A stretch of 64,000 nt of DNA from NCBI RefSeq assembly GCF_036507355.1, contig NZ_AP027877.1; one strand, written 5' to 3'. The number at the start of each line of letters is the position of its first letter. Position 1 is the first letter of the stretch. Below, piece by piece: positions 3,001 to 6,000 of the stretch. The DNA comes from Escherichia coli. GTDB lineage: Bacteria > Pseudomonadota > Gammaproteobacteria > Enterobacterales > Enterobacteriaceae. A program made the position numbers.

Positions 3001-6000
3001 ATCATCGCCCGCAATAGTGTTAATGCTAATCTCGGGCGCGGCGGTATTGACCGTGACGGTCAGTGACTGGCTGCCCGTGTTTCCGGCGCGGTCGGTGACT
3101 GAAACGTTGACAGGATAACTGCCGTCTACCAGACCACTGACAACGGAAGCCGGAACGCCCAGACTCCAGTTGCCGGAACCATCCACCACCGTGGTGTAAT
3201 CCACATTATTCAGCGTCACGGTGACGATATCGCCCGCCTGAGCGCCAGTGACCGTGCCGCTGATAATTTGCGCCTGGATATGTTCCGGCGTGTTAATGAC
3301 GTTATCGGTCGCCACCGGATTAATGGTTACCACCGGCGGCGTGGCATCCACCAGCGCCACGCGCGAAACGCTGCTCGGATTACCGGCGACATCGTTCACG
3401 CTGGCGGTGACCGTAGCGTTGCCGTCAGCCAGTGCGCCCACGTTGGCGGCGGGCACAGTCACGCTCCAGGTGCCGTCTGACTGCACGACGCCCTGATACG
3501 TCTGCCCGTTCAGCGTCACCGTCACCGTCTGCCCCGGCTGAGCGTCGGTGGTGCCGGTGATGGGCAGATCCTGCCCGCTTTCGGCGGCGTTAATGATGTT
3601 ATCGGCGGTCAGTGGATCGATGCTTAAGGCCGAGGCCTGGCTATCGACGGTAATGGTGCGGGAAGTGTTGCCGGTATTGCCGCTGAGATCCGTCACAGAA
3701 GCGGTAATCGCCACCGCGCCGTCAGGCAGATTTCCCATCGCGGCGGCAGGTACCGTCAGACTCCAGGAGCCATCGGCCTGCACGGTAGTGGTAAAACTCT
3801 GTCCAGCCAGGGTTACTGTAACGGTTTGTCCTGTCTCGGCCTGTTGAGTGCTACCGGTAAGGGTCAGTGGCGCACCTTTTTCTGCGCCACTGATAATGTC
3901 ATCGCCGGAGACGGTGTTAATGGTGATCAACGGAGAAACACCGACCAGCGTGATTGCTCGAGACGCCGCGCCAGTATTTCCTGCAGCATCTGTCACGGTG
4001 ACGAAAATCGTATTGGCTCCGCGATCCAGCGTGCGGGTTACCGCCGGGTCCAGCGCCACATTCCAGCTGCCATCTGCCAGCACGATGCCCGTCAGGACAT
4101 GAGTGCCCAATTTCACCGTTACCGTATCGCCTGGAGAAGCACCGCTGACTTGTCCGGAGATGATCTGCGCGACGGCCTGCTCGGCATTATTAAGAATATC
4201 GTCGCCCGCCACGGTATTAACACTGACCACGGGTGCTGAGGTGTCTACCGTGAAATTCGCGCTGTGGCTGGTGGCGTTCCCTGCCCGATCGCTGACACTG
4301 GCATTGACAGCGTAATTACCCTCCGCCAGTGCCTGGACTTCCGTGGCAGGCAGCGTCACTTGCCAGGTTCCGTCGCTACCGACGGTTGCTGTATGGCTTT
4401 TCCCGTTGACGGTCAGTGTTACGGTTTGCCCCGCTTCTGCATTCGACGTGCCGCTCAGTACCAGCGCGACGTTATGTTCCGCAGCACTGATGATGTTGTC
4501 CTGAGCGATGGTGTTGATGGCAAGCGTTGGCGGTTGGGTATCGACCGTTAGCAGCTGCGCGCCGGTGACCGTATTGCCTGTGGTGTCTTTCCCACTGACC
4601 AGTACCGCCTGATTCCCTTCGCCTAACGCCTGTGCATCGGCGGTCGGTACTGGTACGCTCCAGGCACCGTTAGCGCCTACGCTGGTGGTGTAGGTTTTGC
4701 CGTTAAGTGTGACGGTGAGTTCTGTTCCCTGTGCCAGATGACTACTGGTGCCAGAAAGCGTAAACCCGGCGGCCTGTTCGCTGGCGTTAATAATGTTATC
4801 GCCTGCGGTGGTGGCAACCTGCACGCTGGCCTGACTATTGTCGATGGTTAACGTTATCGAACCGGCGTCAGTGATGGTACTGCCGACAATTTGCACCACT
4901 GACCAGGTATGTTCACCTGCACTTTGCGTGGGTAACGAGACACTCCAGTGACCGTTATTGTCTACCTGAGTACTGGCAATAGTATTGCCGTTACTGTCTT
5001 TAATCTGAATAGTCGCCCCCGCCTGCCCGCTGCCGCTAAAGGTTGGCGTGGTGTCATCGGTGATGTCATTGGTGGCGAGAATGCCGCGCTGATCGCCCTG
5101 ATTATCGGTAACTAAAAATGATGGTGTGGCGTTGCCAGGCTCAGCAGGTGGCGTAGGGTTATTAATCACTTCTGTTTTCGAGTCGCCATCGCCACCGCTT
5201 GCCAGCAGTGCACCAAGCGCGCCACCACCTACCGCCGCCCCCGCCAGCCAACCCCACGGGAAGGCGCTGGTCTGAGCAACGGTATCAAGAAATGGCGCAA
5301 TGCTTTCAATCGCAGTGGTCTGGGCAGTCAGTTCTACGGGGGCTAATCCACCCGCAGCAGTATCGGCAAAGGTGATATGGGTTAGCTGTTGACCATCGGC
5401 AAACACCAGTTCCGATTGTTCAGCTGTATTCGCCGCTTGCAGGAAATAACCGTTGCAGCGGATCACCGTGCCGTCCTGCATATAGATCAGCAGGTCATTT
5501 CCTTCACGGACGTAACGCGCAACGGCAGAGGCCTGAGCATGAACCTGCACCACGGAAGGCTCATAAATAACAACCGTGACGTCGCCAGGATTAATCAGCG
5601 TTTGTTTGACGGATGTTTTACGCGAAATAACATCAATAATCAGGCTCATAATAGCATTCCTGATAAATGGCGCACATCCTTAGCGAGTCCATTTATCTAA
5701 ATAAGACAAAGGTAATCACTTAACAACGGCCCACTATTAATAATGGCAGGATTATTTCAAGTCGGGTAAGTCGTTGTATAAGCCCTGTTTAATTCCCGCT
5801 AATGGAATAAGGTTATTCACCGCAGCGGCATAATTTACGGCGGCGACCCAGCCATCATAATTGGCATTTATTTCAGCCGATTGCGCCTGAAAGACATCTT
5901 GCTCGACGGTTAATAGATCATTCAGACTGCGTTTACCCAATTTATATTCATTTTGGTACACATCTCGCGTTTTGTGCGCACTTTCGGATTGCGCTAAACC

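Follow-up and report, generated by a model that had tools for sequence, protein, structure and literature searches.

The stretch of DNA analysed here, referred to as the window, comprises 64,000 nucleotides of Escherichia coli contig NZ_AP027877.1 (assembly GCF_036507355.1), and the subject of the analysis is the N-terminal region of a giant adhesin encoded on the minus strand at its left end. In the original prediction, positions 5320-5649 were read as a LapA-like retention module with a di-alanine site, T97-A98-A99-G100 (TAAG), at which a LapG-type periplasmic protease would cut to release the adhesin under the control of LapD and cyclic diguanosine monophosphate (c-di-GMP). The gene is already known and annotated as that of the adhesin SiiEA, whose BapA prefix-like domain is catalogued; window positions 5320-5649 code for this N-terminal domain, and control of SiiEA by LapG/LapD is not supported. 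Translation of the minus strand from 5649 gives exactly the N-terminus on which the prediction was based, with no stop in 1,883 codons up to the window edge. The features of the locus on which the argument depends are as follows.

5752..7107, minus strand: z0608/tolC28, opening gene of the operon, for a dedicated outer-membrane channel of the TolC family (TIGR01844, 416 bits against a cutoff of 225; RefSeq agrees).
1..5649, minus strand: siiEA, 5' part of 1,883 codons; the gene encodes the giant type I secretion system (T1SS) adhesin of O-island 28, starts with ATG at 5649 and leaves the window at its left edge.
5284..5649, minus strand: residues 1-122, folded all-beta BapA prefix-like domain, proposed as a periplasmic plug/retention domain (AlphaFold2, PF22783, NF033677, AFDB50).
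5350..5361, minus strand: T97-A98-A99-G100, candidate di-alanine site, judged a chance match from its loop position and non-conservation.
5200..5265, minus strand: residues 129-150, hydrophobic Gly/Ala-rich segment FPWGWLAGAAVGGGALGALLAS, its position kept across ~97 homologues.
5125..5199, minus strand: residues 151-175, Gly/Asp/Pro-rich flexible linker ahead of the first immunoglobulin (Ig)-like repeat; predicted local distance difference test (pLDDT) score 46-64.
4903..5109, minus strand: residues 181-249, first Ig-like extender (Pfam Big_13 at 181-249, Big_6 at 195-246).
2569..2571, minus strand: siiEA codon 1027, TGG (Trp) in the window and TAG in the O157:H7 F3113 allele (allele comparison).

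The protein matched the model NF047714 (adhesin_SiiEA) at 512.7 bits against a cutoff of 425, and RefSeq labels the gene "siiEA: BapA-related adhesin SiiEA", with a TolC-family gene upstream of it. Residues 251-1883 are occupied by Ca2+-tandemer/Ig-like repeats, for which NF033510 (Ca_tandemer) and NF012196 each matched 16 stretches. The locus is O-island 28 (OI-28; z0608, z0609/z0615, z0634 and z0635), the operon order of which in O157:H7 is a tolC-like gene, siiEA (20.5 kb), the T1SS permease/ATPase, the HlyD-family adaptor and cueR, with the insertion adjoining ybaT. The ATP-binding cassette (ABC) transporter of OI-28 scored 837 bits with the LssB model TIGR03375 (cutoff 693), and the adaptor, a membrane fusion protein (MFP) of HlyD type, matched TIGR01843. 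The C-terminus of SiiEA lies outside the window; the T1SS C-terminal target domain (TIGR03661) was scored on the full-length O157 allele, giving 36.6 bits against a cutoff of 17.6. SiiEA has ~6,800 residues, with strain-to-strain variation in the repeat region. The siiEA region was found by megablast in 958 of 5,426 complete E. coli genomes, chromosomal in every case. OI-28 is required for epithelial adherence and mouse colonisation, with RstA and Ca2+ as activators, according to a study of December 2025 to which retention and release were outside the scope (PMC12758282). The remark that a LapG-type mechanism is uncharacterised in E. coli was correct, though OI-28 itself was functionally characterised in 2025 (PMC12758282).

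It should be noted that alleles of siiEA differ. In O157:H7, the TAG at codon 1027 divides the gene into z0609 and z0615, which the OI-28 study takes as two repeats-in-toxin (RTX) proteins (PMC12758282); as a result of such a split, the secretion signal at the C-terminus would be missing from the N-terminal piece, and the N-terminal domain from the C-terminal one. RefSeq treats the split O157:H7 gene as a pseudogene. Over its first 510 nt, siiEA does not differ from the alleles of O157:H7 and O55:H7 (100% identity). For the repeat region, the best complete E. coli genome listed reaches only ~96% over its length, and register with the O157 allele is lost past residue ~1,600, indicating variation of the repeat array between strains.

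The family of the N-terminal domain was clear from several models. The Pfam family BapA_N (PF22783) matched residues 5-132 with an E value of 1.3e-19, and NF033677 (BapA prefix-like) covered residues 5-69 at 71.7-73.6 bits, the cutoff being 35. Every one of the best 50 matches in AFDB50 was BapA prefix-like. An AlphaFold2 model from a 41-sequence alignment (mean pLDDT 83, predicted template modelling score 0.71) placed residues 1 to ~122 in an all-beta domain with pLDDT above 90, followed by a disordered stretch. The description of a compact non-repetitive domain therefore holds in this model, while its length of ~110 residues does not, as the domain reaches ~122; ending it at residue 110 would break a strand, because the last predicted strands run over residues 105-107 and 109-114. 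The absence of a classical signal peptide was also borne out, SiiEA having no such N-terminus, as is expected of a T1SS substrate. Hundreds of giant adhesins keep the domain at their extreme N-terminus; an exhaustive HMMER search yielded 149 cluster representatives with a SiiEA-type N-terminus, 99 of which were taken into the alignment. Furthermore, the layout of outer-membrane channel (OEP), BapA_N adhesin, ABC transporter and MFP recurs at homologues in other genomes, without lapG or lapD. A sequence search of the Protein Data Bank with residues 1-170 returned only spurious NDUFA11 matches, and structural similarity was weak and confined to RTX beta-roll or sandwich regions of secreted T1SS proteins.

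The tetrapeptide T97-A98-A99-G100 is present as stated, at nucleotides 5361..5350 of the minus strand. Exact TAAG occurs once in the 1,883 residues and the degenerate form [TAP]AA[GV] twice. In composition-matched shuffles of residues 1-170, exact TAAG arose in 2.8% and [TAP]AA[GV] in 15%, so that the motif alone is weak evidence. In the AlphaFold2 model it lies within a loop at residues 95-104, between the strand at 89-94 and the strands at 105-107 and 109-114; being flanked by strands of one domain, it would therefore sit inside the predicted fold and not after it. The 12 nearest homologues (45-61% identity) all lack the motif at the aligned position; their loop reads ADAAVG, TGEASG, AGDASG, AGEVAG and others. 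Across the wider family, a motif between the domain and the hydrophobic segment was present in 7 of 99 homologues, and one anywhere in the first 200 residues in 20 of 99, frequencies close to those expected by chance. TAAG is retained in E. coli alleles with as little as 88% nucleotide identity, but this is uninformative because the proteins are ~94-99% identical there. Conservation among orthologues was a test that the original prediction had set for itself, and the motif proved to be confined to near-identical E. coli alleles. TAAG is most likely a coincidence, since it is absent from the relatives and searches of E. coli turned up no protease to match.

Membership of the LapA family was examined with the model NF033682 (retention_LapA). 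Residues 1-110, 1-170 and 1-250 of SiiEA gave no match even at E<=10, whereas the positive controls scored 123.5 bits (an adhesin of Leclercia), 118.7 bits (an adhesin of Atlantibacter) and 150 bits (a LapA-like N-terminus). The comparison of the BapA_N alignment with the LapA module by hhalign gave a 0.8% probability of homology. With controls at 118-150 bits and a domain that belongs to the BapA prefix-like family, the LapA-like reading of the module was not upheld.

No LapG or LapD is annotated by RefSeq in OI-28, in its ±20 kb flanks or in the 64-kb window. A LapG hidden Markov model (HMM) built from 83 PF06035 sequences, searched at E<=10 against six-frame translations of the window and of the loci L001, L002 and L003, also returned nothing, while its positive control gave 9e-60; the partners expected in the island were thus found neither by annotation nor by the model. 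When the 5,426 complete genomes of E. coli were searched by blastn (word size 11) with the lapG-lapD genes of Leclercia and of the Sodalis-clade symbiont Malihini, neither query had a match, though a very divergent homologue could escape such a search. E. coli is not named among the best 120 of 7,918 LapG relatives. LapG is present in Leclercia, Atlantibacter hermannii, Citrobacter portucalensis, Kluyvera, Buttiauxella, Phytobacter, Pectobacterium and Brenneria. Matches of LapG by tblastn to plasmids in PLSDB were mostly Vibrio and Rhizobium records, and the ten genera listed by count, of 21 in all, do not include Escherichia. Near the homologues P0095 and P0077, which have an AAAG in the linker, no lapG or lapD was seen on the short contigs available. 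E. coli lysates have served as the LapG-free background of published cleavage assays (bioRxiv 10.1101/198937). Two of the three observations that the original prediction had listed as counting against it have been made, or nearly so.

Behind the domain, the segment at residues 129-150 shows a different character. The 19-residue Kyte-Doolittle mean has a median of 1.68 in the BapA_N family and is 1.40 in SiiEA, with Gly and Ala making up 53-68% (68% in SiiEA), and 59% of BapA_N homologues reach the transmembrane threshold of 1.6 or more. In the AlphaFold2 model of SiiEA the segment has low pLDDT and no secondary structure. LapA-type modules are without a comparable hydrophobic segment, their hydropathy maximum being 0.5-0.6. 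At the position of the following linker, homologues carry polyG, polyD or polyS. The segment at 129-150 may be a slim linker that threads a channel or an anchor embedded in a membrane.

Gene identity, domain family, operon and motif non-conservation were shown, and the roles of plug and linker proposed from here on are those that we infer. The explanation that we favour, at a probability of roughly 55%, is that the N-terminus of SiiEA is a LapG-independent plug that retains the adhesin, with TAAG a chance match. It is preferred because a folded N-terminal domain, a flexible Gly-rich stretch, Ig-like extenders, a dedicated TolC and an ABC transporter of a retention-linked subgroup occur together. 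SiiEA would be exported C-terminus first through its own T1SS, and its Ca2+-dependent Ig repeats would fold outside the cell. The beta-domain at residues 1-122 would be too bulky for the TolC-like channel and would act as the plug, with the ~50-residue low-complexity stretch (129-150 and 151-175) sitting in the channel. In extended form, these ~50 Gly-rich residues would have roughly the length needed to cross a TolC-type conduit. With the plug held in the channel at its N-terminus, the adhesin would consequently stay tethered to the surface. In such a scheme TAAG at 97-100 would have arisen by chance within a variable loop of Ala, Gly and acidic residues, and any release of SiiEA would not be by LapG/LapD. 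The claim of a retained adhesin is plausible in its general form, by analogy, through the N-terminus of a T1SS adhesin, the LapB/LssB-class apparatus and the dedicated TolC, while the LapG-released form is not supported. T1SS adhesins with N-terminal retention modules use a distinct ABC subgroup that includes LssB (Smith et al., bioRxiv 10.1101/198937), and modelling of RTX adhesins has presented diverse N-terminal domains as mutually interchangeable forms of a retention domain (bioRxiv 10.1101/2025.09.30.679566).

BapA of Salmonella enterica and the BapA prefix-like family share with SiiEA the N-terminal domain family on a giant Ig-repeat, Ca2+-stabilised T1SS adhesin, with TolC-like, ABC and MFP genes adjoining; there is no substantive difference from SiiEA, although SiiEA is the larger protein (~6,800 aa) and has repeats that vary between strains. 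LapA of Pseudomonas fluorescens and its enteric versions resemble SiiEA in a Gly-rich linker placed behind an N-terminal module that is non-repetitive and ~120-170 residues long, in an ABC transporter of the LssB/LapB class, in a dedicated TolC-like channel and in a [T/A/P]AA[G/V] motif ~100 residues in. They differ in that no sequence or profile homology links the two, the motif is not conserved in the SiiEA family, the hydrophobic Gly/Ala segment of SiiEA is missing from LapA-type modules, and lapG and lapD were found neither in the SiiEA locus nor detectably in E. coli. The SiiEA model has no helix before the motif, where the LapA-type modules compared have a conserved QQAIA; the LapA-type AlphaFold2 model, from a 3-sequence alignment with a mean pLDDT of 40, is too poor to confirm a helix there and unusable for fold comparison. 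On these likenesses it is plausible that the N-terminus of SiiEA is a functional analogue of the LapA module from a different sequence family. PA1874 of Pseudomonas aeruginosa sets the precedent: the site in its module is degenerate, and the adhesin is held back with no cut by LapG (bioRxiv 10.1101/198937). PA1874 is like the proposed SiiEA in retention by an N-terminal module and export by an LssB/LapB-like ABC transporter. It differs in an N-terminus described as LapA-like and in a host with LapG and LapD, neither of which was detected in E. coli; PA1874 was sought among the SiiEA homologues through its AAAIG motif and was not found. SiiE of Salmonella pathogenicity island 4 (SPI-4), from which the name siiEA derives, is likewise a giant Ig-repeat T1SS adhesin, with transient N-terminal surface retention that does not involve LapG (PMC6272769). 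Its N-terminus is, however, built as beta-sheet, coiled-coil and beta-sheet, and its retention needs the SiiAB proton channel (PMC6272769), whereas no siiAB-like genes are annotated in the OI-28 operon.

Retention by a plug has to be weighed against readings in which SiiEA is held in another way or not at all. It is unlikely, but deserves serious consideration, that the prefix has no tethering role, SiiEA being fully secreted and then rebinding the surface or matrix, or acting as a matrix protein, while the domain serves folding, secretion efficiency or ligand binding. The link between BapA_N and retention is a proposed one, and the only, weak structural resemblance of the domain is to parts of secreted T1SS proteins. 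Moreover, the stop at codon 1027 in O157:H7 yields a C-terminal product without the domain, and it was in a strain of this kind that the OI-28 deletion phenotype was described (PMC12758282). Against this, the N-terminal position, the Gly-rich linker and an LssB-class T1SS with its own TolC are hallmarks of retained adhesins, and conservation of the domain at the extreme N-terminus of so many giant adhesins is strong. Unlikely, too, is a tether by membrane insertion instead of a TolC plug, in which segment 129-150 would be embedded as an anchor, either by a sideways stop-transfer from the ABC transporter into the inner membrane or by association with the outer membrane. The conserved position of the segment in the BapA_N family, the family hydropathy given above, the neighbouring polyG/D/S and the absence of such a segment from LapA-type modules would suit an anchor; the lower hydropathy of SiiEA itself, its 68% Gly+Ala and the lack of a helix in the AlphaFold2 model speak against one. 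We also know of no precedent for lateral release from a T1SS ABC transporter. The role of the Gly/Ala segment and the tethering of BapA-prefix adhesins are questions that concern a large family, to which Salmonella BapA and Acinetobacter Bap/Blp belong.

The reading with which the analysis began, a LapA-like module cut between A98 and A99 by a LapG-type protease under LapD and c-di-GMP so as to free the adhesin, now appears very improbable. Its attraction is understandable: the exact TAAG fits the published [T/A/P]AA[G/V] consensus, its distance from the N-terminus (97-100) matches that of enteric LapA-type sites, which lie at residues 101-106 (PAAG103, TAAG101), Gly-rich sequence follows it, and the ABC transporter is of the LssB/LapB class. 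However, NF033682 fails on SiiEA despite strong controls and the hhalign probability is negligible; the motif is missing from all 12 nearest homologues, has a chance frequency in the family and occupies a loop inside the predicted fold. No LapG or LapD was found in island or window, nor lapG-lapD in the 5,426 genomes by blastn, E. coli is unnamed among the best 120 LapG relatives, and its lysates were LapG-free in published assays (bioRxiv 10.1101/198937). In addition, enterics that do possess lapG-lapD use a separate LapA-type adhesin. Were the LapG reading true, it would provide a c-di-GMP-controlled attach-and-release switch in enterohaemorrhagic E. coli (EHEC) and other OI-28-positive strains, new for the species; the evidence points the opposite way. 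There is similarly very little to recommend the TAAG loop, specific to E. coli, as a regulated release site for a non-LapG or highly divergent LapG protease. If that were so, OI-28-positive E. coli, EHEC included, would have an adhesin-shedding switch that evolved independently on a BapA-type domain.

The use of a separate adhesin by lapG-lapD enterics is seen in two complete cassettes, located as follows.

8330-20693 of locus L012: complete Lap-type cassette, Leclercia adecarboxylata CP040889.1.
8332-20702 of locus L014: complete Lap-type cassette, Atlantibacter hermannii.

In both genera, a different adhesin, served by a TolC and an LssB-class ABC transporter of its own, is encoded immediately downstream of lapG and lapD (LapD_MoxY_N-GGDEF-EAL); its canonical LapA-type module reads LEAPAAGPQSGNTGG or LDPTAAGPQAGASGGG. 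TIGR03375 is also the best model for the ABC transporter of the Leclercia cassette. Each cassette comprises a 553-aa protein without a family match, lapG, lapD, a 113-aa open reading frame (ORF), the NF033682 adhesin (PAAG/TAAG), the TolC-like gene and the LssB-class ABC gene. The Leclercia adhesin runs on into long Asp-Ala/Asp-Ser dipeptide repeats, like staphylococcal SD-repeat regions. In Candidatus Malihini olakiniferum, lapG and lapD are broken into several short ORFs (5744-8500 of locus L009), which suggests a Lap system decaying to pseudogenes during genome reduction.

Within the window itself, one further gene related to c-di-GMP was recorded.

42485-44041, plus strand: EAL-domain c-di-GMP phosphodiesterase, 518 aa (best NCBIfam model PRK10551, below the model cutoff).

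This PdeB-like EAL protein, the one c-di-GMP protein of the window that was examined, was considered as LapD and rejected, the LapD model giving 79 bits against a cutoff of 1,020 through the EAL domain only. In CP035738.1, which encodes a SiiEA-like adhesin of 58% identity, two EAL-domain genes (one of them GerE+EAL) and an AraC-type regulator are situated just downstream of the T1SS operon (32733-36041 of locus L003), and these EAL genes could represent a different route of c-di-GMP input.

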